Assembly: GCA_963931085.1 (NCBI GenBank)
Contig: OZ006973.1
Span: 1,568,053-1,632,052, forward strand
From: an uncultured Clostridia bacterium
GTDB taxonomy: Bacteria; Bacillota; Clostridia; TANB77; CAG-508
DNA length: 64,000 bases
Reading direction: 5' to 3'
Positions within the stretch are counted from its first letter, which is position 1. The number at the start of each line of letters is the position of its first letter. This document shows positions 12,047-56,531 of the stretch, in pieces. The notes under the pieces were generated by a model that saw only the letters and a list, made by a program, of their open reading frames with translations, made no database searches and was not told the origin of the DNA. The position numbers and the translations under genes are program-made.

Positions 12047-12778
12047 TTATCCTGTTTTACTGGTAATATCTTTTCTCATTTTAAGCATTATTTTCTTTTC
12101 TAATCTTGAAATATAACTTTGAGAAATTCCAAGCATATCAGCAACTTCTTTTTGTGTCTTTTCTTTATGTCCAGACATTCCAAACCTTAAATTCATGATA
12201 TTTTTTTCTTTATCTGTTAACTTCTCCATTGCTGATTTTAATAATCTTTTATCTACTTCATCTTCTAAATTTTTATATACAATATCTTCATCTGTTCCTA
12301 GTAAATCTGATAGTAATAATTCATTACCATCTCCATCTTGATTTAATGGTTCATCAATGGAAATCTCTCCTTTTAATCTATTACTTCTTCTTAAAAACAT
12401 TAATATCTCATTCTCTATACACCTAGATGCATATGTAGCAAGCTTAATATTTTTCTTATTATTAAAAGTATTTATTGCCTTCATAAGGCCAATTGTTCCG
12501 ATAGAAATTAAATCTTCTAAGTCAACTCCTGTATTTTCGAACTTTTTAGCAATATATACTACTAATCTCAAATTATGTTCTACTAAAATCTTTCTTGCTT
12601 CTATATTATTATCATCTAATTTAGAAAGTAATTCTTCCTCTTCTTCATTACTAAGAGGTGGTGGTAATGTTTGACTTCCATTAATATAAAAAATAGGAAG
12701 ATCATCTAAATTATTTTTTCTTAAATATTTAATATAAATTAAATTTATATTATCTTTTAATTTTTTAAATACATCCAT
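12047..12778 (-). CDS. sigE: Sporulation sigma factor SigE (pro-sigma-E)
   Basis: 243 aa with a pro-sequence. Motifs are [21 protein letters not shown], region 2 ([10 protein letters not shown]) and region 4 ([13 protein letters not shown]). It lies immediately downstream of spoIIGA. Confidence 0.9.
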
Positions 12779-12804: not shown

Positions 12805-13612
12805 TCAATTCCGAACTAATCCTTTATAAGAATCATTCTTGCTTAATTTACCATCATACAAACCAAGTATTGCATCATAAATAACATAATTGTTATTTAT
12901 GCTTAATCTAATGTATTCTGGTCTTATTCCAAATAGCACTTTATTTTTACTTCCAAGTGTTTCATATGGTATTAAATAAATTTTTCTTTTAGTCTTTGTG
13001 TCTGTAATTACATCTTTTAAGATATTTTTTTCTATTATCACCACAGGCAAACCGAAAAATTGGATCTTTTAAAAGATTTCCTGTATCTAATAATACTTTT
13101 GTATTATATAACTTTTTATCTATGCATATTTCTAAATTACATATCATGTTATCTTTTCTTATATTTCTTGATATTAATTTAAATGTATATTTAATAAGTA
13201 CTGCTGAAAATATAATCGATAATAAAATAATCCATGATGAATACTTTCCTACCATAAAACCAGTATTAAAAAAAGTATTTAATGATTTTGAAAACATAAG
13301 TGATATCGTAATTCCTGCATAAATAAAACTTACTATGTAAAACACAAAAATTTCTTTTGCAAATTCTTTTAAATCTTTTGTTTTATAAATTATCTTTATC
13401 ATTAGTATCGATGTTAAAATCTTTATTATCCATCTTATAATAGGAGTAAAGTTTATAAATATGTCTAAAACTGTTTCTAACACTCCAATAATAGATGAAA
13501 TAACAATTTTCATACTATTTGTTTTTTTCTTTAGAACTGATGTTGTTGTAAGAAGTAATATAAAGTCCATTATAAATTCTTTTATAATTATCAGATCTAA
13601 GTATAAAACCAT
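12805..13612 (-). CDS. spoIIGA: Sigma-E processing peptidase SpoIIGA. The frame is interrupted once at a CGG codon.
   Basis: The ORF pieces are 12989..13612 (membrane domain, LLDTGN aspartic-protease motif) and 12805..13050. Skipping the C of CGG at 13052-13054 gives DTGNLLKDPIFGLPVVIIEKNIL. Confidence 0.75.
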
Positions 13613-13901: not shown

Positions 13902-15011
13902 CTATTTATTGTTTTTTCTTAAGAAAGTTGGAATATCAAGTTCTCCATTGTTTGATGAAGATCTATCTGCAACTCCACCTATTGTATTCATCTTTCTTTC
14001 CCAAGCTTTATTTACTATATCGTTTGCTTTTTGTTCTCTTTCATCATCACCTTCAAAACCAGTAGCAATTACTGTAATTCTGATTTCATCACCCATTGAA
14101 TCATCTGTAACAGAACCAAATATAATATTTGCTTCTGGATCTGCTGAGCGTTGAATTAATTCTGCTGCTGTGTTTGCTTCATGTAATCCAACATCTGATC
14201 CACCAGTAATATTAATAATAACTCCTCTTGCACCTTCTATTGATGTTTCTAGTAATGGACTTTGGATAGCTTGTTTTGCTGCATCTTCTGCTCTGTTTTC
14301 ACCAGAAGCAGTACCAATACCCATATGAGCCATTCCTCTATCAAGCATTATTGTTTTAACATCAGCAAAGTCTAGGTTAATAAGTCCTGGTACTGAGATT
14401 AAATCAGATATACCTTGAACACCTTGTCTTAAAACATCATCAGCCATTCTAAAAGCTTCTACTATTGATGTCTTTCTATCTATAACTTGTAATAATTTAT
14501 CATTAGGAATTACAACTAAAGTATCTACTTTACCTTTTAGATTTTCAATTCCTCTTTCAGCTTGCGCTAATCTTTTCTTTCCTTCAAAAGTAAATGGTTT
14601 AGTAACAACACCTATTGTTAATATTCCCATTTCTTTAGCAGTAGCAGCAACTATTGGTGCAGCACCTGTACCTGTTCCACCACCCATACCAGATGTAACA
14701 AATACCATATCTGCTCCTCTTAAAGCTTCAGCAACTTCAGCTTTACTTTCTTCTGCAGCTTGTGCACCTATATCTGGGTTTGCACCAGCTCCTAATCCTC
14801 TAGTTAATTTTTCTCCAATTTGAATTTTAGTTGAAGCTTTTGATAATTGAAGTGCTTGTCTATCTGTATTAACAGCTATGAATTCTACATTTTTAATTCC
14901 CGCATCAATCATTCTGTTTACAGCATTATTTCCAGCTCCTCCAACACCTATTACTTTTATTGTAGCTGTTCCATCCATCATGAATTTCTCTTCATCATTT
15001 TCCATAATCAT
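13902..15011 (-). CDS. ftsZ: Cell division protein FtsZ
   Basis: 369 aa. Motifs are [17 protein letters not shown] and [17 protein letters not shown] lies 8 nt upstream of the ATG. Confidence 0.97.
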
Positions 15012-39240: not shown

Positions 39241-42200
39241 TTATCTTTCGTCTCCTGATTGTCTTCTATACTCTCTTCTTGATTTAGGAAGATCTCTAGT
39301 TCCTTCATCATCAAAAGTATATTCTCTCGTTTGTCTTTTATTTCTTTTTTTGTCTGTATTTGTCTTTCTTGCATTTTCAGCAACATCTAAAGCTGTATCA
39401 GCAATAATAGCTCCTTTTAAAATATCTCCAATCACTTCTGTACTCCTTTCCACAGTAGGATTTATTACAGTTTCATTTACAGTTTTTACTGTATCTACAG
39501 TCTTTGATACAGTTTCATAATGACCTTCAACGTCAACTACTGTTTTTATAATATCATCTACTTTAACTCTTTCAGTTATTCCTGGGACTAAATCAGAAAG
39601 TTTAGTCCAGAATCTATCACCAACTGCAACATATAGATTACTTAATGTATCTACATCTACTGTTCCATCATTTACATCATTTACCAACTCATCTACTGTT
39701 ATATTTTGTCTTAATACTCCAGAATCTAGCATATCTGCTGCGAAAGTACCATCTGTTAATGTTGGAGCCCTTAGTCCGGCAGTATCAGATAATCCATGTC
39801 CTCCGCTTCCAACTGAATTAAATATCGCAGTAATTTTTTCATCTCCAGATAAAGTATAAACTTCTGGCAATCTTTCTCCTCCATATACTGAATAAAATCC
39901 TGTAACCTGCTTTCCACTGTTTGAAGCCATAAGTTCATCAAGTGTTCTCGACTTATTGATAACATCATCATATACTGGCATAGTCTCTGTTTTATATGTT
40001 GTAGGTACCCATTCTTCTGTTGTTATAGTTTCAGTAGATGGAACTTCAACTTGTCTTGTTATTTTATTATGTTCTAAAATCCAATCATGAATTTTAGGTC
40101 CAATATATTTTACAGCTAATCCTTTTGCAAAACCTTTAATTACAGTAGTTCTTAATGTATTTACTTCTTTACTTGCAATAGCATGTTGCTTGTCATCTAC
40201 TGCATCTGTTTGCTCTGAAGCAATAGGACCATTATTTACTAAAGAATTTAAATTATCTCTTGCATTTTGCAAACTATTTCTTTTAGAAGTAATTGCATTT
40301 TCTACATCTATTCTATTTGAAGCTCCTGGATTTCTCCTTAAAGAATCTTCTAGTCTTCTTATCTGTATTTCAAATTCTCTTATCTGAGTATTTAATGCAT
40401 TTATTAATACTGCGTTTCTCTCTTGAGAAATAATATTTTGCTTAATATCTGCAGCTCCTGCTCTTAAGACAGCTTCATTTCCTTCTTTAGCTCTAAATAA
40501 AGCTTTAAATCTTGCTTCTATTGCATTTCTAAATGGATGTCTTACAGGATTTACACTTGCAGGATTAGGAGATGATGCTCTTAATCTTTCTGTTTCATCT
40601 TCGTCTCTTTGCCTTGCAATATCAGCAAAATAATCTCTTCTAGCTACCATTCTATGATAAACATTATTTTTATATGGAGAAGCATCTCTTCCTCTTGTAA
40701 TTAATCTATGTAACGGTTGAGCAACATTTCTTCCTATAAATCTGTATACTGGTGCAAAAACGTTTCTTACAAATATTCCGGCATTTAATACTACTCTTCC
40801 AGCATTTCTTAGTAGTCCTGTTTGTCTTGGGATATATGGCATAGTTTCACCATACTTCCCAAGTGTTGCTAAATCACTTTGCGTATATTCGTGTTGATTA
40901 AATGTATGATTTCTAGTTTCTATATATTCTTTATCATTATCATATGTATGACTTGTTCCATTATATACAGATGTATCTCCTGCATCAAATCTTGTCATTC
41001 TTTCAAGTGCAGATTTATATCCATCTAAAAGTAAGAATTTTTCATCATCTTCTCTTTCAGGATAATCTCTAATTGTTCTATATGTTATTCCACCACTTGT
41101 AGTATCAATCTCATTTGATTTAAATCTTTCAGATCTTTCTAGATACTCTCTTTCATAATCTTTATCTCCATAGAATTTAGCAAGCATATCATCTCTTCTT
41201 CTTAGATATTCGTTTTCAATTCTATCATTATCTAAAGTATAAGTTAAACTAGGATCAGATGGTATATCTATTTCTTGAGCTGTAAAATCAAATCTTTTTG
41301 AAGAAGCTCTATTTATTGCATCTTGAAGTACGGCTCTATCATAATCATCTCTTTCTACATTCTCTAAGTTTTGTGTAAATACTTCTTCGTGCCTAATAAA
41401 ATTATTTTGCCCTAAAAGCATCCATCTAAAATCATCTCGTGATGATGTAGCACGACCTTTTTTAGCATCCCATGTTAAATCAGTATTGTACCATTTTCCA
41501 TTACCATGCTCATCTTTTATTTCGACTTGATTCCATGCATGACCTGTATTATCATTTCCTGTTTCACAATTTCCTGTTACAAGTCTTGATCTTATTCCTA
41601 CTAAAGAAAGAGCATTTCTTAAAATATCAGCATATCCTGCACAAACAGTTTTTCCCTCTATAATACCTTCTTTAAGATTTCTGCACTCATTTATTCTTCT
41701 AGAATAATATAAAGCACTTGTTTTATCATCATGTCTTATTGCATCATGGTCATAAGAAATTGAATCTGCAAGTCTAGTATAAATAGTCGTAAATTTATCT
41801 AAATCTGAATCAGCTGGATTAATTCCTCTTACAACCCTATCTAATGTATCTCTAATATATATATACTCTGCTTGTGAATATGAATCTATTTGATAACTCC
41901 AATTATCAAAATTATCATCTAAAATTTGTACTCCAGAAATATTCATTCCCACATTATTCATTCTTCTTGACAAATCTCTAAGAGTAACACTATCTAGTTC
42001 TGATACATCTTTAATTTTTACTCTTACATCCTGCGGAATGACTTTTCCCGAATTTAATAAATGTTCTATCTGAGGAATTGTAAGTAATAAATTAGCATCT
42101 TGAAGATAAGATCTTGTAAAATCTGTAGAATCAATTTCTGATTCATTTTCAATCATTATTGGATTTTCTTTAATTTTTAAGTTACCTCTTATAATCTCTG

Positions 42201-44106
42201 CATCTTTTATATAATATGGAGCTTTATTCATAGACCACATTAATCTATCAACAGCATCATCTTTTGTAGTTGTATTTCTATCACCCTTAGCTATTCCTGA
42301 ATCAAAATAAATTTTCTTTAAAAACTCAAAAGATTCATCAGAAATGTCTGGTGCATTTATTATTTGGTTTCTTATTCCAGTATTATTATTTAGATAATAT
42401 ATTAAATATGGATTAGTTCTATAAAAATTCTCTACTCTTTCTATATCATTAACACCTAAATCATTACTCATTAAATTAAGTAATCCAAGTCTTCCATCAA
42501 AGTTTTCTAATCCATCTATATCATTTACTTGTGAATTAGTAATATTCACCATTACAAGATTAGAATTTACAGAAAGTTCTCTTAATATTTTTCTATCATG
42601 TAAATGCTGACCATTTATCGTAATATCATGTAATGTACATGATGGATAAATAGTACTCATAAACTGATTAAATTCACTATCAGAAATACTATTTATTTCT
42701 AAAATTGGAATAGAATCTAATCCACTAACAGAAGAGATATTTTCTGTTCTTCCACCTCTTAATATAATCTTTCTTAAAGCAGGTAATCTCTCTACATCTA
42801 CATTTATTAAGTTTATTCCTTCAAAAGAAATAGCTTCAATATTATCTGATAACTTAGTACCAAAGTTTGGTATTTGAATAGCTGAACTTGGATCTGTATT
42901 TCTAAATGCTATTGTTTGATATTCTTTTTTACCATCTATTCTATAATTATTATTTGATATTTTTGGTACTTTTGATAAATCAATATCAAAATCTTCTGCT
43001 ATATTACTTGAAATAGTTAAAGTTATTGGATAATATCTTGCATACTCGCTATTTGATTGAACTTCATAAATTTTATCTACTACTTCTTGTAAATCAACAT
43101 GACTTCCTGTTTCATTAGAAATATCTATTTTACTTAATATTTCAGGATAATATGTAGCAATTTCTTCTAACTCTATTTTTAAATCATCATAACTAGTATC
43201 AGTAACATTAATTTTAAGTTCTGGTAATTCTTTTTTTAGAGTCTCCTCTGTAATTTCATTTCCTTCAAAAATTCCAGAAAGCTCTTTACTCTTTATCTCA
43301 ACTTTTTTTCTTTCTTCAGGAACAGGTGGGATAATTTCATCTTCCTTATTTACTTTATTTTCCTCATTATTTTGTCTATCTATATATGAAAGGACACTAT
43401 CTATTGCTTTATTTATCTCTTCCCTAGGTAAAAATCTATCTGAAGATGTCTCTACCATATCTGTTTTATGTTCTGGCATATAATAAAACTCTGGATTAGA
43501 TAAGAAATTCATAAATACAGGAGTTTCATTAATATTATTATTAAAAAACTCATCCGAATCCTTTGCCAAATCTAAAGGATAGTATATATTTCCTATCTGA
43601 ATTTCATTCCATGCATCAAAATTACTATTATAAATATATTTACATGGAATTCCATTTCTTCTCATTGCTTCATAAAAAATAGAAGCAAGACCTGCAGAAT
43701 CTGTTTTATTACCAATAAGAGCAGATAAATCATATGATGCTTTATTTTTCTCTAAATCACTTCGTGGAATTTGCTGAAACATTTTATAGAAATATATAGC
43801 TTTTTCTATATTGCTCCACTCAGGATTCATTCTTCTTTCAATTTCATTAAATTCATTTATTAAATCAATAAATGCTTCTTTTGTATATGTTAATAATTTT
43901 CTTCCTGATGATTTTTCGTACTCTTGAATATCGTTATCAGGATTAATTCTTATAATACAGTCATCACTTAATTCTCTTATTAAATTTATATTTTGATTTT
44001 TAGTAGAGCTAAATTCTACTATTACTGGTGCTATACTATTAATTTCTTTTATATCTTCTACTCTGATATTTCCTTTAATACGGATTAATTTCATTTTCTT
44101 CTCCAT
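39241..44106 (-). CDS. Giant orphan protein A (1621 aa). It has a degenerate transglutaminase-like domain, leucine-rich repeats, an intact transglutaminase-like Cys-His-Asp core, and a long C-terminal region with amphipathic segments and a charged tail.
   Basis: The core reads GKTVCAGYADILRNALSLVGIRSRLVTG...GHAWNQ...WYNTDLTWD. Codon positions are Cys 41641-41643, His 41539-41541 and Asp 41479-41481. The LRR block covers about aa 425-575 (42382-42834). There is no signal peptide. The likelier start is the ATG at 44094, where GGAG lies 6 nt upstream. Confidence 0.8.
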   Translation of the reverse strand: MEKKMKLIRIKGNIRVEDIKEINSIAPVIVEFSSTKNQNINLIRELSDDCIIRINPDNDIQEYEKSSGRKLLTYTKEAFIDLINEFNEIERRMNPEWSNIEKAIYFYKMFQQIPRSDLEKNKASYDLSALIGNKTDSAGLASIFYEAMRRNGIPCKYIYNSNFDAWNEIQIGNIYYPLDLAKDSDEFFNNNINETPVFMNFLSNPEFYYMPEHKTDMVETSSDRFLPREEINKAIDSVLSYIDRQNNEENKVNKEDEIIPPVPEERKKVEIKSKELSGIFEGNEITEETLKKELPELKINVTDTSYDDLKIELEEIATYYPEILSKIDISNETGSHVDLQEVVDKIYEVQSNSEYARYYPITLTISSNIAEDFDIDLSKVPKISNNNYRIDGKKEYQTIAFRNTDPSSAIQIPNFGTKLSDNIEAISFEGINLINVDVERLPALRKIILRGGRTENISSVSGLDSIPILEINSISDSEFNQFMSTIYPSCTLHDITINGQHLHDRKILRELSVNSNLVMVNITNSQVNDIDGLENFDGRLGLLNLMSNDLGVNDIERVENFYRTNPYLIYYLNNNTGIRNQIINAPDISDESFEFLKKIYFDSGIAKGDRNTTTKDDAVDRLMWSMNKAPYYIKDAEIIRGNLKIKENPIMIENESEIDSTDFTRSYLQDANLLLTIPQIEHLLNSGKVIPQDVRVKIKDVSELDSVTLRDLSRRMNNVGMNISGVQILDDNFDNWSYQIDSYSQAEYIYIRDTLDRVVRGINPADSDLDKFTTIYTRLADSISYDHDAIRHDDKTSALYYSRRINECRNLKEGIIEGKTVCAGYADILRNALSLVGIRSRLVTGNCETGNDNTGHAWNQVEIKDEHGNGKWYNTDLTWDAKKGRATSSRDDFRWMLLGQNNFIRHEEVFTQNLENVERDDYDRAVLQDAINRASSKRFDFTAQEIDIPSDPSLTYTLDNDRIENEYLRRRDDMLAKFYGDKDYEREYLERSERFKSNEIDTTSGGITYRTIRDYPEREDDEKFLLLDGYKSALERMTRFDAGDTSVYNGTSHTYDNDKEYIETRNHTFNQHEYTQSDLATLGKYGETMPYIPRQTGLLRNAGRVVLNAGIFVRNVFAPVYRFIGRNVAQPLHRLITRGRDASPYKNNVYHRMVARRDYFADIARQRDEDETERLRASSPNPASVNPVRHPFRNAIEARFKALFRAKEGNEAVLRAGAADIKQNIISQERNAVLINALNTQIREFEIQIRRLEDSLRRNPGASNRIDVENAITSKRNSLQNARDNLNSLVNNGPIASEQTDAVDDKQHAIASKEVNTLRTTVIKGFAKGLAVKYIGPKIHDWILEHNKITRQVEVPSTETITTEEWVPTTYKTETMPVYDDVINKSRTLDELMASNSGKQVTGFYSVYGGERLPEVYTLSGDEKITAIFNSVGSGGHGLSDTAGLRAPTLTDGTFAADMLDSGVLRQNITVDELVNDVNDGTVDVDTLSNLYVAVGDRFWTKLSDLVPGITERVKVDDIIKTVVDVEGHYETVSKTVDTVKTVNETVINPTVERSTEVIGDILKGAIIADTALDVAENARKTNTDKKRNKRQTREYTFDDEGTRDLPKSRREYRRQSGDER

Positions 44107-44131: not shown

Positions 44132-44767
44132 CTATCTACCTAAAGTATCATATAATTCTAAGTTTTCTTTATGTGAATATACAGTATTAGGATTAACATT
44201 TACATCTTCTACTTTTACTCCATCGCTATCATATAAAATAGAACCATCTAAAACGACTCTCTTTAGATTTAGAAAATCTGATAAGTCTCTTATTCCATAA
44301 ATTCTTGAACTTAATAAATTTAATATTTTTGCTTTTTCAATATTAATACATTTAAAAGGAATATTTGATCCGATAATCTCTACAACTTCTAAAGGTGGAT
44401 ACTTAAATGGAATTTCTCTACATCCCTTTATTCGTAATTTCAAGTTTGGATTTACATCTTTAAAATCAATTTCATCAAAAGAACAATCTGTAAATTCTAA
44501 AGAACGTAAATTTCTATTTTTTAAAATTTTATCCACAATTTCTTGAGATATGTGGAAATCTGAGATGCCGAGAATTTCTAAAGATGGGAAAAAAGATAAC
44601 ATATCTAAGTCTATATCTGATCTGCTACCATCAAACCTTTTTCCACCTAAATTAATTTCTCTTATTTCTTGAATATCTTCTTCTGTAACATGATTAAAAT
44701 CCATTTTACATGATTTAACAGCAATTAATCTTCTTAAATCTTCACTTTTTATTTCTTCTAATTTCAT
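44132..44767 (-). CDS. Leucine-rich-repeat protein (211 aa), first gene of the giant-A operon
   Basis: LRR-like periodic leucines occur (LSFFPSLEILGISDFHIS..., NLRSLEFTDCSF..., LKRVVLDGSIL). AGGAG lies upstream of the ATG. The gene is 25 nt upstream of giant A. Confidence 0.65.
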   Translation of the reverse strand: MKLEEIKSEDLRRLIAVKSCKMDFNHVTEEDIQEIREINLGGKRFDGSRSDIDLDMLSFFPSLEILGISDFHISQEIVDKILKNRNLRSLEFTDCSFDEIDFKDVNPNLKLRIKGCREIPFKYPPLEVVEIIGSNIPFKCINIEKAKILNLLSSRIYGIRDLSDFLNLKRVVLDGSILYDSDGVKVEDVNVNPNTVYSHKENLELYDTLGR

Positions 44768-44846: not shown

Positions 44847-44879
44847 AAAAAAAAAAAAGACACTTTATAAAAGTGTCTT
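44847..44879 (-). terminator. Intrinsic terminator of tuf
   Basis: The stem is aagacactt (44857-44865) / aagtgtctt (44871-44879). A T-run of at least 10 follows on the minus strand. Confidence 0.8.
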
Positions 44880-44900
44880 TTCTCTATTTTAAAGAATAAA

Positions 44901-49496: not shown

Positions 49497-49525
49497 ATTT
49501 TATCATCTTTGTTTTTTAAAGTCAA
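49497..49525 (-). promoter_or_regulatory. Sigma-A promoter of the str operon
   Basis: The minus strand reads TTGACT (49520-49525), a 17-nt spacer, then TGaTAAAAT (hexamer 49497-49502). The -35 overlaps the stop codon of the upstream small ORF. Confidence 0.55.
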
Positions 49526-49797
49526 CATTTGTGCAAAAATAATTTAGCTATTTTATCAATTTTTTTGATTTTAATATTATTTGCAATTATCAATAATACA
49601 TCTTTTTTTATTTCATCTGATATATCATTATTTATGTACAGTTCATCATTTTCTATTTTATATTCTACAACATCACCTGTAATTGGCTTTTCCGTAGTAG
49701 ATAAAAAGAAATATTTTTTATTTTTATATAGTACATTATCCATAATCATATACTTTTTTCCATCATAAACAATTTCATCACCAATAAAAAAATCCAT
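49522..49797 (-). CDS. Small acidic/aromatic protein, paralog 3 of a three-member family (DUF1292-like pattern)
   Basis: 91 aa with the core VYDGKKYMIMDNVLYKNKKYFFL. It aligns with the ORFs at 50270..50566 and 50668..50982. Confidence 0.55.
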   Translation of the reverse strand: MDFFIGDEIVYDGKKYMIMDNVLYKNKKYFFLSTTEKPITGDVVEYKIENDELYINNDISDEIKKDVLLIIANNIKIKKIDKIAKLFLHKC

Positions 49798-49798
49798 T

Positions 49799-50215
49799 CT
49801 ATCTAGTCTCCCTTTCTTGGTTACTAATAACTTTATTTTCAGCCTCTTTTGCTAAACTTTCATATTCTTCCATGTCTATTTTTCTTTCTTCTAATCTAGC
49901 CTTTGTATCATCCCAAAAGTGTTTAGCAAACTCTGAATTATATCCTGCTTGATATGCTCCATATCCCAGAGCAGATAACGTAGCAATAATTAAAGCTTTT
50001 TTAAAACCATTAAATGACTCTTGTTTTTTCTTTGAACGATTCTCTTTTGTATATGTCGCCCTTCTCCAGTCAGATTGATTTTTATTTGTACCTACTGAGG
50101 TTATAAAAGGTTTTTCTAATTCTCTAAAATCACTACTGCTCATGTCTATTGAATCTAAAAATTTTTCAAAATCTTTATCAAATGATCCTTCATCTAATCC
50201 TGTTTTTCTTTCCAT
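49799..50215 (-). CDS. Hypothetical single-pass membrane protein
   Basis: 138 aa with a central TM (ALIIATLSALGYGAYQAGY) and charged flanks. Its stop abuts the start of the downstream small ORF. Confidence 0.5.
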   Translation of the reverse strand: MERKTGLDEGSFDKDFEKFLDSIDMSSSDFRELEKPFITSVGTNKNQSDWRRATYTKENRSKKKQESFNGFKKALIIATLSALGYGAYQAGYNSEFAKHFWDDTKARLEERKIDMEEYESLAKEAENKVISNQERETR

Positions 50216-50269: not shown

Positions 50270-50566
50270 TTAAACATTTGCTTTAGCAATTTTTCTATTT
50301 ATTTTATCAATTGCTATATTGCACAATTCTCCAAAGATTTTTTCATCTGTAACTTTATCAAAATATCTATCATAAACCTTATATATGAATTCAGTAGTAG
50401 AGAAACTATATTTAATATCATTTAAATTATAATTCTTATCTTCCATTTCTGACTTATTAACGATGAAATAATATTTTCTTCCTTTATATTGAAGACAATC
50501 AATTATACAAAATTCCTTTCCTTCATATGTAGTTTCAGCAAATCTTTTATCCCCTGAATTTACCAT
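50270..50566 (-). CDS. Small protein, paralog 2 (DUF1292-like pattern)
   Basis: 98 aa with the core TYEGKEFCIIDCLQYKGRKYYFIV ... EFIYKVYDRYFDKVTDEKIFGEL. Confidence 0.55.
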   Translation of the reverse strand: MVNSGDKRFAETTYEGKEFCIIDCLQYKGRKYYFIVNKSEMEDKNYNLNDIKYSFSTTEFIYKVYDRYFDKVTDEKIFGELCNIAIDKINRKIAKANV

Positions 50567-50667
50567 ACTTTTTTTGGCTCCTTTCTCAAATATTATTTTT
50601 ATCTTTCGTTTTAAAAATCTGTACTATGAAGAGAAAAGGAAGATTGTTCCTTCACTCTATATAAGCA

Positions 50668-50982
50668 TTATTTTTTCAAATTATCATATAAGCCTTTAAA
50701 ATATTTATTTTCTTGTAAAAATATTCTTTTAGTAGCTTCTTTTGACAATTCTTTATATAATTGATCATCATCTACTGTTTGATAATACTTATCTTCAACT
50801 TCATATATGAAATTAACTTCAACTTCTTTATTACCATAATCTTCAATATTATCTTTTCCTTCTTCATAAATATCTTCCATTATGTAATAATATTTTTTTC
50901 CTTTATATTCAAAGAAGTCTATTATAAAATACTCTTTTTCTCCATATTTTATTTTTACAAAATTACTATTTTTAAATTCCAT
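50668..50982 (-). CDS. Small protein, paralog 1 (DUF1292-like pattern), translationally close-coupled to giant B
   Basis: 104 aa with the core KYGEKEYFIIDFFEYKGKKYYYIM ... NFIYEVEDKYYQTVDDDQLYKEL. AAGGAG lies 8 nt before the ATG, within the 17 nt after the giant-B stop. Confidence 0.6.
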   Translation of the reverse strand: MEFKNSNFVKIKYGEKEYFIIDFFEYKGKKYYYIMEDIYEEGKDNIEDYGNKEVEVNFIYEVEDKYYQTVDDDQLYKELSKEATKRIFLQENKYFKGLYDNLKK

Positions 50983-50999: not shown

Positions 51000-53900
51000 T
51001 TATCTATCTTCTCCTTGATCACGATCTTGATCATTATTCTCTTGGTTGTCACGTTCTTGATCATTGTCTCTTTGTTCTTCTTGTCCTCTTGAAGCATTTT
51101 CTCTTCTTCTAATATCTTCACCAAAAGCAGCATTTCCCATTGTTGCTCCTAATACTACTGCTGCTGGGATAACTGAAGAATCTATTGCAATATTGAAGTC
51201 ACCAATATGACTAGCTGATTGAATTGTTCCAGAAACTGTTGGAACTGTAATTGATTGTGCTGCATTTTGTAATAAGTTATTTAAGTTACCTCTTTGAGCT
51301 AGTGCTTCTCTAGTTACATCTACCATAGATTGATATGTTGATGAATATTGTGATCCACTATTTATAGCTTGTTGTAATACTCCCATTTGATATTGCATAC
51401 TACTTACAATTTCTGGTTCAATTGTATTTTGATTAAATTGTAATATAGTATTTATAGCACCTTGGAAGTTACCAGCTTGTGCTAAAGCATCTGCTTGTTG
51501 TACTGCTGATAAATATTGAGAATTCATTTGTTCAACCATTTGGTGAACTTGAGCATCCTTTGCGAAATCCCATGCTCCACCAGCTACTTGGTTAGCAGAT
51601 ACTGTAAATGAATCATGATATCTAGCTAAAAGTCCTTGTATATTTCCATCTGTAACTGTCTTAAACGCTTCGTATGTACCCTGATCTGGAGTAGCAGTTT
51701 GACTATATGATTTTATTTGATTTAGTGCATTTTGATAGTCTTGCTCTACTTGTAAATTATTTTGATTTACCTGGTCTAGATGAGTATTATGAGCTGCATG
51801 TTCTTGGTCTAATCTAAGTTGTTCAGATGCAATTTTATTATTTTGTATCATTGCATTAGCAAAGTTAACTACTGCTGCAGTTAATGCTACATTTGCCATA
51901 ATTTGACGAGATCTTGTATCATCTCTATCAGAAGGAATAACAGTTGTTTTTTCACGTTGTGCTTTTCCTCTTGTAATTACTATTGGACCGAAATGTTTAG
52001 TTTCAGTATTTTTTTCAAGTGATTGAACCATTTCAAATTCTTGGTCTCTTGCTGTTTGTTCATCTCCTCTTCCTCTCGCTTCTCTAACCATATCATGTCT
52101 TTCTGCCATTTCTTCAATTAAATCTCTGTTATCTGGATTTGTTTTTGCAAATAATTTGAAGAAAGGAAATGTTGGTCCATAATTATCTCTATTTCTACTT
52201 TTATTAAACATAGCTCTTTCAACAGCTTTATATTGTTCTACTACTTTTCTTTCTGTTAAAGATTCAGCAGAAATATCTCTACTAGAATAAGCATTTCTTT
52301 CTTGTCTCATTGCTTGGTAATTAGCAATCATTCGATCTAATTGTTCTCTTGTAAATACGCCTGCATTAATTAAATCATTTTCCATTCCCTCGATTTCTGC
52401 TATTGTTGCCCTATCACAGTATGTCTTATCACTCAATAATAATTTAGCATCTTCTGCATTAAATTGTCTTCCATTTACTTGAACTCTATTTCCAACTGTA
52501 TTTGCTACTGCTTCTCTAGCCTCTGTCATTCTTTGATCTATTTCTTCTGCTTTTTGTTGATTTACCGCTCTATAGTTATCAGAGAATTCAACTCTATCTG
52601 AAGTCTCTTCCCCTAAAACTTCCATAACAGCTTGCATGTATAAATCGTTTAATTTATATTGTCTTGCTGTACTTTCATGAACTAATCCATACATATTCTG
52701 TCCATTTGGTCCAGGCTCACCATTTAATAATACATTCCATTCATCTGGATGGTTATCACGTAAGTCTCTTAAATTAGCACACATTTCTTGGAATTGATTT
52801 TCTGTTTTTTTATTTCCGATTGCATTAATTGCTTTAGCTCCTAATTTTACTGGAAGCATTACAGCAGTAACAGGTAATCCAAGCCATCCAATACCTCCAT
52901 CCTTTATAGATGTTGGTCCCAATTTTGCATGAGCTAAGTTTCTAAGTGTAATTGCTCTAGATGTTGCTTGAGGTCCATCATAAGATGTATCAGCTACAAT
53001 TCTCCAGAATCCTCTAGTTGTCAAATCATGTTTATGTCCATCATCGTCATCATCGTGTCCATGTCCATCATCGTCATCATCATGTCCATGTCCGTCATCG
53101 TCATCATCATGTCCATGTCCATCATCGTCATCATCATGTCCATGTCCATCATCGTCATCATCGTGTCCATGTCCATCATCGTCATCATCGTGTCCATGTC
53201 CATCATCGTCATCATCATGTCCATGTCCATCATCGTCATCATCATGTCCATGTCCGTCATCGTCATCATCGTGTCCATGTCCATCATCGTCATCATCATG
53301 TCCATGTCCATCATCATCATGTGTACGGTCAACAGGAACTCTTTCTGTTACTCTTTCTCTAGTTAATGATTCTAACTCGGAAATTATATTGTTTAACTGT
53401 TCTAATCTTCTACGCTCTGCATCTGTTAAAGGAGCACGATTTTGATTCCCCTCTAATTGTTGTCTTTCTTCTTCTAATCTAGCAATTTGTTCTCTTATTG
53501 AATTTAATCTATCTTGTAATGTATTTACATCTTCATTTACAGTAACATTTTGAGGTGACTCATTTAATAAATCAATTGCAGCTGAATAGCTACTTTCACT
53601 TCTTCTTAATTCTTCTAATTGCCTATCTATTTCTTCTCTTCTTTGAGCCTCTCTATCTTGAGTATTATCTCCTCTTTGATTAATTTCTCTTAATCCTTCT
53701 CTTAATTCTTGGAATTCATCTATTTCATTATCATCTAATTGATTTTGAATTGCATGTTCATCTTCATTTTCTATTCCTTCTAATTCTGGAACTACTCTAC
53801 CTAAAACTTGTGCCATCATTATTCTTAATTCTGCTTTTCTTGCAGGAGTAGTTGAATCATTATTAAATTCTTCTCTTAATTCTTGGAATCTATCAATTTC

Positions 53901-56531
53901 GTTATCATCTAATTGATTTTGAATTGCATGCTCGTCTTCGTTTTCTATTCCATCTAATTCTGGAACTTCTCTACCTAAAATTTGTGACATCCTGTATCTT
54001 ATTGCTTGTGCTCTTATTCTATCTTCTGGAGATAATTCAGGAGAATCATTCGTATTTTCTCCGTTTGCTCTGGCTAGAAGTGCATCTCTTTCTGCTCTAT
54101 ACTCTTCTAACCTTCTATCTACTTCTGAAGCTTCTACATATGGTCTTTCATCAGATGTTCTACTTAATAAATCTCTAAGTTCTGGTAAAACATCATTTGC
54201 TCTTTGAATATCTGCTTCTGATACCTGTTCTGTCTCTCTTTCTGTTGTAATTGTGTATTGATATGTAGACATTAACATAGTTAAACGTCTCTTTGTATCA
54301 TCTGATACATTTTCTAAGCTATTTATATATTCAGCTTCTTGTTCTGGAGTACGAGTAATATCTGCATTTATTAGATTGTCTCTTTCTCTTGTTAAAGTAT
54401 CAATTTCAGCTTGCATTCCATCAAGTTCCGCTCTTTCTTCCTCTGTAAGTTCAGGTTGATTTCTTGTAACTCTTACAAGTCTTATTGGAGTAACAACTCC
54501 ATCATCCATTCCTTCAGCTCCATCTCTTACTTCAACATCATAATTATTAATATTTTCATTAATCTCTTCTTCAGACATATTCATTTCTTGTCTTAATATA
54601 GCTCTTACTAAATCTTGTCCTTGTAGTCTTCCATTTCCATATGTCTCAATATAAAGATTATCCATTCCTTCAACAGGTTCTCTTGTCTCTGTTTCTCTTG
54701 ATCCTGGTTCAATTGTTCTCGTTCTAACTACTATACTTCTTGAAAGAGGTCCATCATCATATAAACCATTTGCGTCTTCTACAGTCTCCATAGAATATTC
54801 ATTTATTGTTCTATCTATTTCTTCGTCTGATATTCCATTTTGTCTTAACACTGTTCTTATAAAATCTTCATCTGATATTCTAGGAAAATTATTTATATCT
54901 AAATCAGTTTGGACTTCTTCTCTAATAGTTCTAGGTGACGTTTCTATTTCATTTCTTCTTGCTTCTAAAGCATTTCTTCTCTCTTCAATTAAATTATCTA
55001 ATTCTCTAGTTCTATTATTTACTATTTCTTGGTATTGTCTTGAATTTTGAAGATCTAACAAACGAGTTCTTTCATCTGTAGATAAATCACTTCTAGATAA
55101 TTCTTGATTAATTCTATCTTGGTCATATGATAAATCTTCTGGTAAGTTAGAATTACTATTAGCTTCTCTTTCAGCTCTTTGTCTATTTATCTCTTGATAT
55201 CTTCTAGCATCTTCTCTACTTATTGTAGTAAGTACTGGTTCTCTTCTAGTTTGATTTGCTAAAACACCTTCATAATAATTAATTCTATCTTGAATAGTTT
55301 GTCTTGTAACAACTTCAATTTCTCTATTCTCATATTCTTGTTCAGTTTCTTGAGAAGAATCACCTGTAGTACCTTCTGCTGATGTATCTGTAGCTTCTTG
55401 TTCTGGTTCTTCTGCTTGTCTTCTTTCTTCTTCTCTTTCTTCTTCAACTTGTCTATCAACATCTTTTGATAAACCTTGAATTAATCTGTTTACAACAGCT
55501 TTATCTTCATCTGATAATTCATCAAGTCCAAGCATATTTTGAAGTCTAACAAGCATTAATCTTTTATCTCTTATTGTTCCAGAATATGCTCTAAAGTTTC
55601 CATCTCTATCATATCTAAATCCAACTGTTGAACTAAGCATTGATTGAAGATCTGTTTCTTGTACTCTTGAAACTAGAACACCTGCTCTTACACCAAAATT
55701 ATCAGTTCTTCTTTTTTCTTCAGGAGATGTTGTTCTATCTACTTCTCCTATCTCTTGAATTCTTCTATGTAAATCAGCATAATTTTCATATCTAACTTCG
55801 CCTTCACTTGCTGTTAATTCTTCTCTTACTCTATCATTTTCAGTTCTATCATTTGTAGCTATATCTCTTGCAATATCGTTTCTCATTCTTGGTAAAAATG
55901 ATTCTACATAAGTTCTTACTTCTGGAGTTAATCTATCTGTTTGCAATAAATCATTTATTCTATTAGCAATTACTGTTCTATTACGTACAGATCCTGTAAC
56001 ACTTACTCTTCCTTCTTCGTCCATTACGAAGTTTACAGGTCTATTTGTTAAAGGATATTCATATGTTCCATTATTATTATCTATACCATTTTCTCTATTC
56101 CCAGATCTTTCTGCCATTTCAGATAAATTAGTAACTAATTCATCATATTCTCTATTTGCAGTCTCTTGAACTCTTTCTGCCCTTGAAACAGCTTCATCTA
56201 ATGATCTAAGTAATGTGTCTATTGTATCATCTATTCTATTATCTTCATCTGTTCTTTCTTCAGTACTTGTTCTTCTTCTATCTCTTAAATCTCTTAAAGA
56301 TCTTGCTAAATCTCTTTTACCATTAGTTGGTCCTAATGCTGTAATTTGATTATCTGCTCCCACTTTAAATTTTACTTCTCTTGGGAAAGTGCTTCTATAA
56401 GAAGTAGCTTCAATTTTTGTAACTGAATTGTTTAAACTTCTTCTTATTTCTCCTATGTCACTTGCTCTTCCTACTGTTGATATATAACCTCTAACTGCTG
56501 CTAATAATCTTTCATCGGAAATATTTGCCAT
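51000..56531 (-). CDS. Giant orphan protein B (1843 aa). It has an Arg/Glu/Asp-rich repetitive N-terminal 1070 aa, a DDDDDGHGH tandem array, hydrophobic segments, a Gln/Asn/Ala-rich helical C-region and an acidic tail.
   Basis: This is a long uninterrupted ORF. AGGAGG lies 8-9 nt before the ATG at 56531, and a strong promoter lies upstream. There is no signal peptide. Internal repeats are described in the findings. Confidence 0.8.
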   Translation of the reverse strand: MANISDERLLAAVRGYISTVGRASDIGEIRRSLNNSVTKIEATSYRSTFPREVKFKVGADNQITALGPTNGKRDLARSLRDLRDRRRTSTEERTDEDNRIDDTIDTLLRSLDEAVSRAERVQETANREYDELVTNLSEMAERSGNRENGIDNNNGTYEYPLTNRPVNFVMDEEGRVSVTGSVRNRTVIANRINDLLQTDRLTPEVRTYVESFLPRMRNDIARDIATNDRTENDRVREELTASEGEVRYENYADLHRRIQEIGEVDRTTSPEEKRRTDNFGVRAGVLVSRVQETDLQSMLSSTVGFRYDRDGNFRAYSGTIRDKRLMLVRLQNMLGLDELSDEDKAVVNRLIQGLSKDVDRQVEEEREEERRQAEEPEQEATDTSAEGTTGDSSQETEQEYENREIEVVTRQTIQDRINYYEGVLANQTRREPVLTTISREDARRYQEINRQRAEREANSNSNLPEDLSYDQDRINQELSRSDLSTDERTRLLDLQNSRQYQEIVNNRTRELDNLIEERRNALEARRNEIETSPRTIREEVQTDLDINNFPRISDEDFIRTVLRQNGISDEEIDRTINEYSMETVEDANGLYDDGPLSRSIVVRTRTIEPGSRETETREPVEGMDNLYIETYGNGRLQGQDLVRAILRQEMNMSEEEINENINNYDVEVRDGAEGMDDGVVTPIRLVRVTRNQPELTEEERAELDGMQAEIDTLTRERDNLINADITRTPEQEAEYINSLENVSDDTKRRLTMLMSTYQYTITTERETEQVSEADIQRANDVLPELRDLLSRTSDERPYVEASEVDRRLEEYRAERDALLARANGENTNDSPELSPEDRIRAQAIRYRMSQILGREVPELDGIENEDEHAIQNQLDDNEIDRFQELREEFNNDSTTPARKAELRIMMAQVLGRVVPELEGIENEDEHAIQNQLDDNEIDEFQELREGLREINQRGDNTQDREAQRREEIDRQLEELRRSESSYSAAIDLLNESPQNVTVNEDVNTLQDRLNSIREQIARLEEERQQLEGNQNRAPLTDAERRRLEQLNNIISELESLTRERVTERVPVDRTHDDDGHGHDDDDDGHGHDDDDDGHGHDDDDDGHGHDDDDDGHGHDDDDDGHGHDDDDDGHGHDDDDDGHGHDDDDDGHGHDDDDDGHGHDDDDDGHKHDLTTRGFWRIVADTSYDGPQATSRAITLRNLAHAKLGPTSIKDGGIGWLGLPVTAVMLPVKLGAKAINAIGNKKTENQFQEMCANLRDLRDNHPDEWNVLLNGEPGPNGQNMYGLVHESTARQYKLNDLYMQAVMEVLGEETSDRVEFSDNYRAVNQQKAEEIDQRMTEAREAVANTVGNRVQVNGRQFNAEDAKLLLSDKTYCDRATIAEIEGMENDLINAGVFTREQLDRMIANYQAMRQERNAYSSRDISAESLTERKVVEQYKAVERAMFNKSRNRDNYGPTFPFFKLFAKTNPDNRDLIEEMAERHDMVREARGRGDEQTARDQEFEMVQSLEKNTETKHFGPIVITRGKAQREKTTVIPSDRDDTRSRQIMANVALTAAVVNFANAMIQNNKIASEQLRLDQEHAAHNTHLDQVNQNNLQVEQDYQNALNQIKSYSQTATPDQGTYEAFKTVTDGNIQGLLARYHDSFTVSANQVAGGAWDFAKDAQVHQMVEQMNSQYLSAVQQADALAQAGNFQGAINTILQFNQNTIEPEIVSSMQYQMGVLQQAINSGSQYSSTYQSMVDVTREALAQRGNLNNLLQNAAQSITVPTVSGTIQSASHIGDFNIAIDSSVIPAAVVLGATMGNAAFGEDIRRRENASRGQEEQRDNDQERDNQENNDQDRDQGEDR
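53034..53321 (-). repeat. In-frame 27-bp tandem repeat, 10 full units plus truncated ends, encoding (DDDDDGHGH)n
   Basis: Units start at 53040 and recur every 27 bp to 53309. The copies differ only at CAC/CAT and GAT/GAC third positions. Confidence 0.95.
53697..53989 (-). repeat. Tandem duplication with a 174-bp period inside giant B. About 119 bp of each copy is highly similar.
   Basis: Copy 1 is 53697-53815 and copy 2 is 53871-53989. They encode VPELEGIENEDEHAIQNQLDDNEIDEFQELRE and VPELDGIENEDEHAIQNQLDDNEIDRFQELRE. Confidence 0.85.

Follow-up and report, generated by a model that had tools for sequence, protein, structure and literature searches.

The window analysed here, a stretch of 64,000 nucleotides (nt) from the chromosome of an uncultured Clostridia bacterium of the lineage TANB77/CAG-508 (assembly GCA_963931085.1, contig OZ006973.1, positions 1,568,053 to 1,632,052), encodes a very large protein, giant protein A, which we could show to be real and under constraint, built of modules and restricted to the TANB77/CAG-508 lineage of gut Clostridia. 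The head of the protein (amino acids (aa) 5–925) consists of a small alpha/beta domain, a dead transglutaminase-like domain, a leucine-rich repeat (LRR) solenoid, an alpha/beta linker and an intact transglutaminase-like domain, and it is followed by an orphan C-terminal module (Table 1). Both the enzyme core and the LRR belong to known kinds, and the novelty lies in the joining of an undescribed module to a known kind of enzyme. Neither the dead-plus-live duplication of the core, nor the recurrent LRR partner, nor the 695-residue module with its narrow distribution in TANB77 and its syntenic slot is described in the libraries searched. The second ATG of the open reading frame (ORF) is probably the true start of giant protein A, since MKLIRIK forms the N-terminus of all homologues and this ATG is preceded, at a distance of about 8 nt, by a GGAG. 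In comparison with a 90%-identical orthologue, which was used for all parts of the protein, the ratio of non-synonymous to synonymous substitution rates (dN/dS) is 0.18 over the whole of giant protein A.

The first-pass annotation of this DNA, made from the letters alone, had recognised the Cys-His-Asp triad of a transglutaminase-like cysteine protease in giant protein A, and this core is indeed found by independent means. Pfam Transglut_core (PF01841) matched aa 759–876 with an E value of 1.1e-13 and a score of 51.8 bits, the cut-off being 23, and the family profile matched PDB entry 9crn with an E value of 2.2e-9, with the motifs VCxGYA, HAWN and D-TW of 9crn aligning to the Cys, His and Asp of giant protein A. 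When checked against the sequence, all motif and codon positions given before proved exact, with Cys822 in GKTVCAGYA (codon 41641–41643), His856 in GHAWNQ (codon 41539–41541) and Asp876 in WYNTDLTWD (codon 41479–41481). For the analysis of conservation giant protein A was aligned with 12 homologues (13 sequences, 36–98% identity, numbering one lower), and the three residues are invariant in all 13 of them. In the AlphaFold2 (AF2) model of aa 5–931 (predicted local distance difference test score (pLDDT) 85.1, predicted template modelling score 0.66) Cys822 stands at the N-terminal end of a helix, the strand that follows carries His856, and Asp876 comes immediately behind the strand after that. 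Papain and transglutaminases have their residues in this canonical order, and the condition named earlier as a refutation, a triad that fails to superimpose on transglutaminase-like cores in a structural model, did not arise. Foldseek searches with the model of the head returned 9crn (E 8.6e-6), 4xz7 (5.5e-4), 3isr (2e-3) and PeiP 8z4f (3.9e-3). Giant protein A shares the core fold and the ordered triad with the transglutaminase-like superfamily (PF01841), as represented by S. pyogenes TglA (9crn), a putative cysteine protease from Cytophaga (3isr) and the pseudomurein endoisopeptidase PeiP (8z4f). These examples are proteins of about 220–510 residues or membrane/periplasmic enzymes, whereas the core of giant protein A is embedded centrally in 1617 aa, with a dead duplicate and an LRR before it and the 695-aa orphan module after it. 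No literature on "TglA" of PDB entry 9crn was found in the library searched.

A second claim of the first-pass annotation was that the same scaffold is repeated near the N-terminus as a pseudo-enzyme copy, with Ser in place of Cys (DSAGLASIF, Ser137 codon 43696–43698) and FDAWNE in place of the His motif, both of which are present as quoted. The copy is real, as an hhalign comparison of aa ~73–193 with aa ~742–890 gave a probability of 98.9% and an E value of 3.7e-17, with Ser aligned to Cys, a variable residue other than His aligned to His, and the Asp retained. S, WNE and YP-D are the invariant residues of the degenerate core across the homologues, and in the model Ser137 is found at a helix N-terminus equivalent to that of Cys822. 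The LRR block that had been proposed between the two cores was likewise recovered by profile matches to LRR structures (E ~2e-4), by about eight strands that the model sets at regular intervals (aa ~398–571, pLDDT about 81–96) and by Foldseek, which matched the head to the internalins InlA, InlB, InlC2 and InlF, to NLRC4 and to Roco LRRs. Although the predicted solenoid resembles that of the internalins, giant protein A differs from them in having no signal peptide, no cell-wall anchor and no match to a Pfam LRR model at E<=1, Transglut_core being the only model reported. With dN/dS values of 0.14 for the degenerate core, 0.12 for the LRR solenoid and 0.10 for the intact core, all three are under strong purifying selection. 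The N-terminal domain (aa 5–70), which could be assigned to no family, differs more between strains than any other part, with 80% identity and a dN/dS of 0.51.

Regarding the protein as a whole, the earlier view that its architecture lies outside any described family was upheld, as Pfam and NCBIfam match the transglutaminase core only, hold no model spanning all of giant protein A, and PHROGs and PADLOC returned nothing; a known full-length family was rejected on these grounds. The one other NCBIfam match is at chance level (E 0.13, far below the cut-off). The MAG6410 family transglutaminase-related lipoprotein of Mycoplasma (NF045980) shows a local likeness to the core only (aa 812–924) with 72.3 bits against a cut-off of 450, while giant protein A has neither a lipoprotein signal nor a hydrophobic N-terminus and its remainder is unrelated. 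The reported lack of a signal peptide agrees with an N-terminus free of any hydrophobic segment, and no transmembrane helix was found in giant protein A, where the highest 19-residue Kyte-Doolittle mean is 1.33 and falls in an Asp-containing stretch; signal or transmembrane segments were rejected on the basis of this hydropathy. No tandem repeats were found within the protein.

The best-conserved part of giant protein A is its C-terminal module. Of the features described before for the last 530 residues, the basic amphipathic stretch, the coiled-coil stretch and the charged tail (ending in GDER) are all present, but the 530 residues are part of a larger module of 695 residues, which the family hidden Markov model (HMM) covers. 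An exhaustive HMMER search found this module in 107 of 1.84 billion representative proteins, a word-indexed search gave 48 clusters with none informatively named, and there was no match in Pfam, NCBIfam, PHROG, PADLOC, PDB or BFVD. Among the 43 long members of the family six carry Transglut_core, and no Pfam domain recurs among the others, of which two show one unrelated match each. In three related loci (L014, L015 and L023) proteins of 1068–1296 aa carry the module behind unrelated, highly charged heads, and other heads are also found in L038–L040 and L046. The module is autonomous, since one and the same module is joined to different heads in all these loci. Members without the transglutaminase head usually occupy a slot between trmFO and rpsL (L014–L016, L023, L038–L040 and L046).

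The AF2 model of the module is of moderate confidence (pLDDT 64.6) and predicts helices of 40–50 residues, two long beta-hairpins flanking a small domain, a final helix and a disordered, charged tail. A known fold was rejected for this model, with best Foldseek E values of 0.9 in the PDB and 0.067 in BFVD. The region of aa 1095–1200 has a net charge of +10 and shows invariant Asn and Arg residues at helical spacing, and in the YxxxD of the tail the Tyr is invariant and the Asp is kept by 90% or more of the homologues in the alignment. Directly downstream of the module genes in L038 (11253–11465) and L040 (10827–11021) we also noticed stand-alone ORFs of 64–70 aa, which reproduce the tail motif (ENxRKT...Y.FD) and end in a charged, ...EDR-like terminus.

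Directly upstream of the gene for giant protein A lies that of a small LRR protein, u211, with a gap of 25 nt to the first ATG and of 37 nt to the likely start. The two genes are apparently co-transcribed, as suggested by this short gap, by the lack of a terminator-like site between them and by a putative promoter of their own after the tuf terminator. Members of the u211 family carry precomputed Pfam LRR_4 matches. Using the family HMM and leaving the window itself uncounted, we found that in 8 of 12 distinct full-length loci u211 immediately precedes the giant gene; it also adjoins short (~600-aa) LRR-plus-transglutaminase paralogues in L017–L020, L032 and L037, so that it stands next to a transglutaminase head in 14 loci in total and next to a module-only gene in none of 10. 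u211 tracks the transglutaminase head and not the module. In L028 (9224–10711, plus strand) a single ORF of 496 aa even fuses a full-length u211-like LRR domain (aa 21–225) to a transglutaminase core (aa 296–449), and this Rosetta-stone fusion argues for a direct functional link between u211 and the core. The partner evolves fast, being 59–60% identical between strains whose tuf is 98% and whose giant protein A is 90–93% identical, and dN/dS, at 0.51 for the full length, reaches 0.66 in the C-terminal half; there are several alleles with 54–64% identity. That u211 is a copy of the internal LRR was considered and not adopted, as the similarity between them is weak (hhalign E 4.5e-4, probability 33%).

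Table 1: Coordinates of giant protein A, its parts, its partner gene and further features of the window (positions count from the first letter of the window).
Feature	Position	Strand	Remarks
Giant protein A ORF	39241..44106	(-)	1621 aa from first ATG; 1617 aa from likely start 44094
N-terminal small alpha/beta domain (aa 5–70)	43897..44094	(-)	AF2 model, pLDDT 83–91
Degenerate transglutaminase-like core (aa ~73–193)	43528..43890	(-)	Ser137 for Cys, His lost, Asp179 kept
LRR solenoid, ~8 repeats (aa ~395–575)	42382..42924	(-)	LRR profile matches, model, Foldseek
Intact transglutaminase-like core (aa ~745–880), Cys822/His856/Asp876	41467..41874	(-)	Pfam PF01841, PDB 9crn, invariant triad
Orphan C-terminal module (aa 927–1621)	39244..41328	(-)	family HMM spans aa 927–1621
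Conserved basic amphipathic helix in module, LLRNAGRVVLNAGIFVRNVFAPVYRFIG (aa 1098–1125)	40732..40815	(-)	invariant N/R at 3–4 residue spacing
Conserved tail motif ENxRKT...K.R.YxFDD	39307..39378	(-)	includes YxxxD
Small LRR partner u211 (211 aa)	44132..44767	(-)	upstream of giant protein A gene
Sigma-70-like promoter TTGTTA-17-TATAAT with TG	44822-44794	(-)	consensus match; ahead of u211
tuf terminator hairpin	44855-44881	(-)	consensus match
sigE	12047-12778	(-)	376 bits, above curated cut-off
spoIIGA-like gene	12989-13612	(-)	
GIANT_B (1843 aa)	51000-56531	(-)	in trmFO–rpsL slot where relatives carry module proteins

To our knowledge, RavJ and LegL1 from Legionella are the only structurally characterised pair in which an LRR protein inhibits a transglutaminase, and they are the closest characterised analogue of the system described here. 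RavJ is a transglutaminase-like protein with a Cys-His-Asp triad, and the LRR protein LegL1, encoded next to it, arches over its active site and blocks it (PMC5199130). The complex (4xa9) is also among the fold matches of the head, through its LRR part (E 1.5e-2), and the arrangement of a transglutaminase-like enzyme gene beside a small LRR gene recurs in the 14 loci mentioned above and as a fusion in L028. In contrast to giant protein A and u211, which come from a monoderm gut commensal without a known export route, RavJ and LegL1 are delivered by a type IV secretion system; moreover, the likeness is one of fold and gene pairing, and u211 evolves much faster than the catalytic domain.

Taking these results together, we favour a reading in which giant protein A works as a cysteine enzyme, tethered and guided by LRRs, that modifies a protein or peptide substrate inside the producing cell and is gated or targeted by u211, a proposal that we consider quite possible while holding it only tentatively. 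The intact core would act as a cysteine-dependent enzyme on isopeptide bonds or glutamine residues of a protein or peptide, by cleavage, cross-linking or deamidation, and the internal LRR and the dead core might serve as substrate-recognition or docking surfaces. u211 would bind the head and gate or redirect the active site, as LegL1 does for RavJ, and the elongated C-terminal module could tether or assemble the enzyme at a cellular structure. The preference for action within the producing cell is weak and comes from the lack of an export signal in giant protein A, in u211 and in the short transglutaminase paralogue. As sigE is encoded in the window, the enzyme could also be active in the mother cell and at the spore surface. 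If the head does act inside the cell, it would point to an unknown structural system.

Several points weigh against this proposal. u211 is only 59–60% identical between strains in which the transglutaminase core is 97% identical, and such a fast divergence speaks against a simple plug of the active site, because a plug of this kind would be expected to be conserved. Four of the 12 full-length loci have no detectable u211 gene. The promoter of the unit looks sigma-A-like and not sporulation-specific, as judged by the match to the consensus, and the idea of an elongated tether is weakly based, being drawn from the module model of pLDDT 64.6. In addition, the tail motif, found also in separate small ORFs, might direct export or sorting, and this would then suggest an extracellular role. 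More generally, everything beyond the domain calls is something that we infer.

In a different explanation giant protein A is an effector or toxin that is exported non-classically, with the module and its charged YxxxD tail as export or delivery device, the head acting on proteins of the host or of competitors and u211 as an immunity-like or chaperone partner. We regard this as unlikely. The combination of LRR with papain/transglutaminase-like folds is typical of effectors, as the first-pass annotation had remarked and as also the precedent of RavJ and LegL1 shows, and both the rapid evolution of u211 into several alleles with its high dN/dS in the C-terminal half and the conservation of a tail motif that recurs as a separate small ORF would fit. 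The non-significant top fold matches of the module include pore-forming toxins of the ClyA family, but these have E values above 0.9 and derive from a low-confidence model. Export by a classical route is not indicated, as there is no Sec/Tat signal in giant protein A and no secretion-system gene was recognised among the scanned genes of the window, the immediate neighbours included. The protein also does not resemble type VII/LXG polymorphic toxins: it has no LXG/WXG100 Pfam domain, its partner gene lies upstream, and its conserved part is C-terminal and its variable part N-terminal, which is the reverse of the order in polymorphic toxins.

The genomic position of the two-gene unit can be read in both directions. 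Tuf and plsX are adjacent in relatives, so that the unit of u211 and giant protein A is an insertion between them here, and it is found at different chromosomal places in different genomes, which would suit an effector. However, u211 is the sole conserved neighbour of giant protein A and no other gene is common to the loci, and most members of the module family occupy a conserved housekeeping slot and in this respect look like core genes. We also rejected the idea that conserved neighbouring genes would point to a pathway, since apart from u211 the flanks differ between genomes. At the insertion site itself an indel polymorphism is visible in L001 (7665–9322) and L043 (1827–3105), whose tuf is 98% identical: both carry two extra ORFs of 171 aa and 245–260 aa between tuf and u211, each with a hydrophobic segment, which are absent from the window. 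Should the head indeed act on proteins of the host or of neighbouring cells, the clade would have in giant protein A a candidate factor for interaction with the host. A bolder combination, in which the module and its tail peptide form a hitherto undescribed, TANB77-specific system that places large cargo heads at a defined site, on the surface of cell or spore or, independently of a signal peptide, outside the cell, with giant protein A delivering an LRR-gated enzyme to targets of the host or of neighbouring cells and the hypervariable u211 as specificity or immunity factor, seems rather improbable to us.

We also hold it rather improbable that giant protein A is a morphogenetic protein of the spore surface (coat or exosporium), which the mother cell would produce without a signal peptide and which would assemble on the forespore via its module, where the core would cross-link or trim coat proteins. 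Transglutaminase cross-linking, as by Tgl of B. subtilis, is a known step of coat maturation. The sigE gene of the window scores above its curated cut-off and is accompanied by a spoIIGA-like gene, both located downstream of ftsA and a probable ftsZ (13902–15011, judged from the C-terminal sequence alone), and from these two genes the mother-cell machinery of endospore formation appears to be encoded in this reduced TANB77 genome. Furthermore, the window encodes lineage-specific, fast-diverging proteins with charged low-complexity stretches and without signal peptides, such as GIANT_B with its (DDDDDGHGH)n and a neighbouring 557-aa protein with KPEDKK repeats, and charged, lineage-specific proteins of this kind resemble coat proteins. 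On the other hand, when a sporulation-type promoter was looked for ahead of the unit the best match was sigma-A-like, and searches of Pfam and NCBIfam showed no likeness to Tgl or to any known coat protein. With 207 aa the spoIIGA homologue is short and scores below its cut-off, and TANB77 itself might not sporulate.

That giant protein A might be a structural protein of a phage or mobile element (a tape-measure protein or virion-associated lysin), or together with u211 an anti-phage sensor-effector pair, could be suspected from its size, its long helices and its enzyme domain as well as from the variable sites of the two-gene unit and the fast-evolving LRR partner. Nevertheless there is no PHROG match, none in PADLOC for giant protein A, u211 or the large neighbours, and no significant fold match in BFVD (best E 0.067). 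The flanks are the housekeeping genes tuf and plsX, with no phage, integrase or transposase genes as neighbours, and a nucleoside triphosphatase domain as in known LRR/STAND-type sensors is lacking. The phage and defence readings are largely excluded by these results and can be considered very improbable.

Related loci were found only in metagenome-assembled genomes of uncultured gut Clostridia (from rabbit, human, mouse, chicken and ruminants), one of which is Candidatus Scatovivens faecipullorum, placed in the order TANB77 and the family CAG-508 by a GTDB-based classification (PMC13106387). TANB77 is an uncultured lineage with reduced genomes that has been linked to immunotherapy response (PMC11680825). 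As an abundant and entirely uncultured gut order it is nearly unexplored in its cell biology and host interaction, and the orphan module of about 700 residues, specific to this clade, is sufficiently conserved for use as a marker and as an entry point. A transglutaminase-like enzyme and a small LRR protein that are repeatedly found together, as adjacent genes and as a fusion, parallel RavJ and LegL1 in a Gram-positive commensal, and the duplication into a dead and a live enzyme is directly accessible to mutagenesis.

The window has a G+C content of about 25% and carries ordinary chromosomal genes. The local order on the minus strand is a trmFO-like gene, GIANT_B, rpsL, rpsG, fusA, tuf, u211, giant protein A, plsX, rnc and a radical-SAM gene; addB, a topoisomerase gene, murA, ftsA and a Mur ligase gene are also present. 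GIANT_B had no Pfam, NCBIfam or PADLOC match, and a 27-bp tandem repeat with 11 copies (53025–53320) encodes its (DDDDDGHGH)n. Its residues ~540–950 resemble heads of module proteins and its charged tail ends in ...GEDR, similar to the charged end of giant protein A, but it was rejected as a paralogue of giant protein A as neither BLASTP nor hhalign nor the family HMM detected the module in it. Large unannotated ORFs (963–1379 aa) are found beside trmFO in relatives as well.

Between GIANT_B and rpsL the minus strand contains three small paralogous ORFs (49525–49851, 50273–50623 and 50668–50982) with the motif ...K.YF.I..-Y.-KKY..., one of which shows a weak DUF1292 match; a DUF1292-like gene is also located directly downstream of the module gene in L047. 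An ORF of 138 aa (49799–50215, minus strand) upstream of rpsL has a weakly hydrophobic centre and a charged C-terminus, ...ERETR, which echoes the [DE]xR termini of giant protein A, GIANT_B and the small tail ORFs. Three further ORFs of 846, 584 and 368 aa (58293–60833 and 62154–63908 on the minus strand and 24286–25392 on the plus strand) are present in the window and have no Pfam or NCBIfam match.

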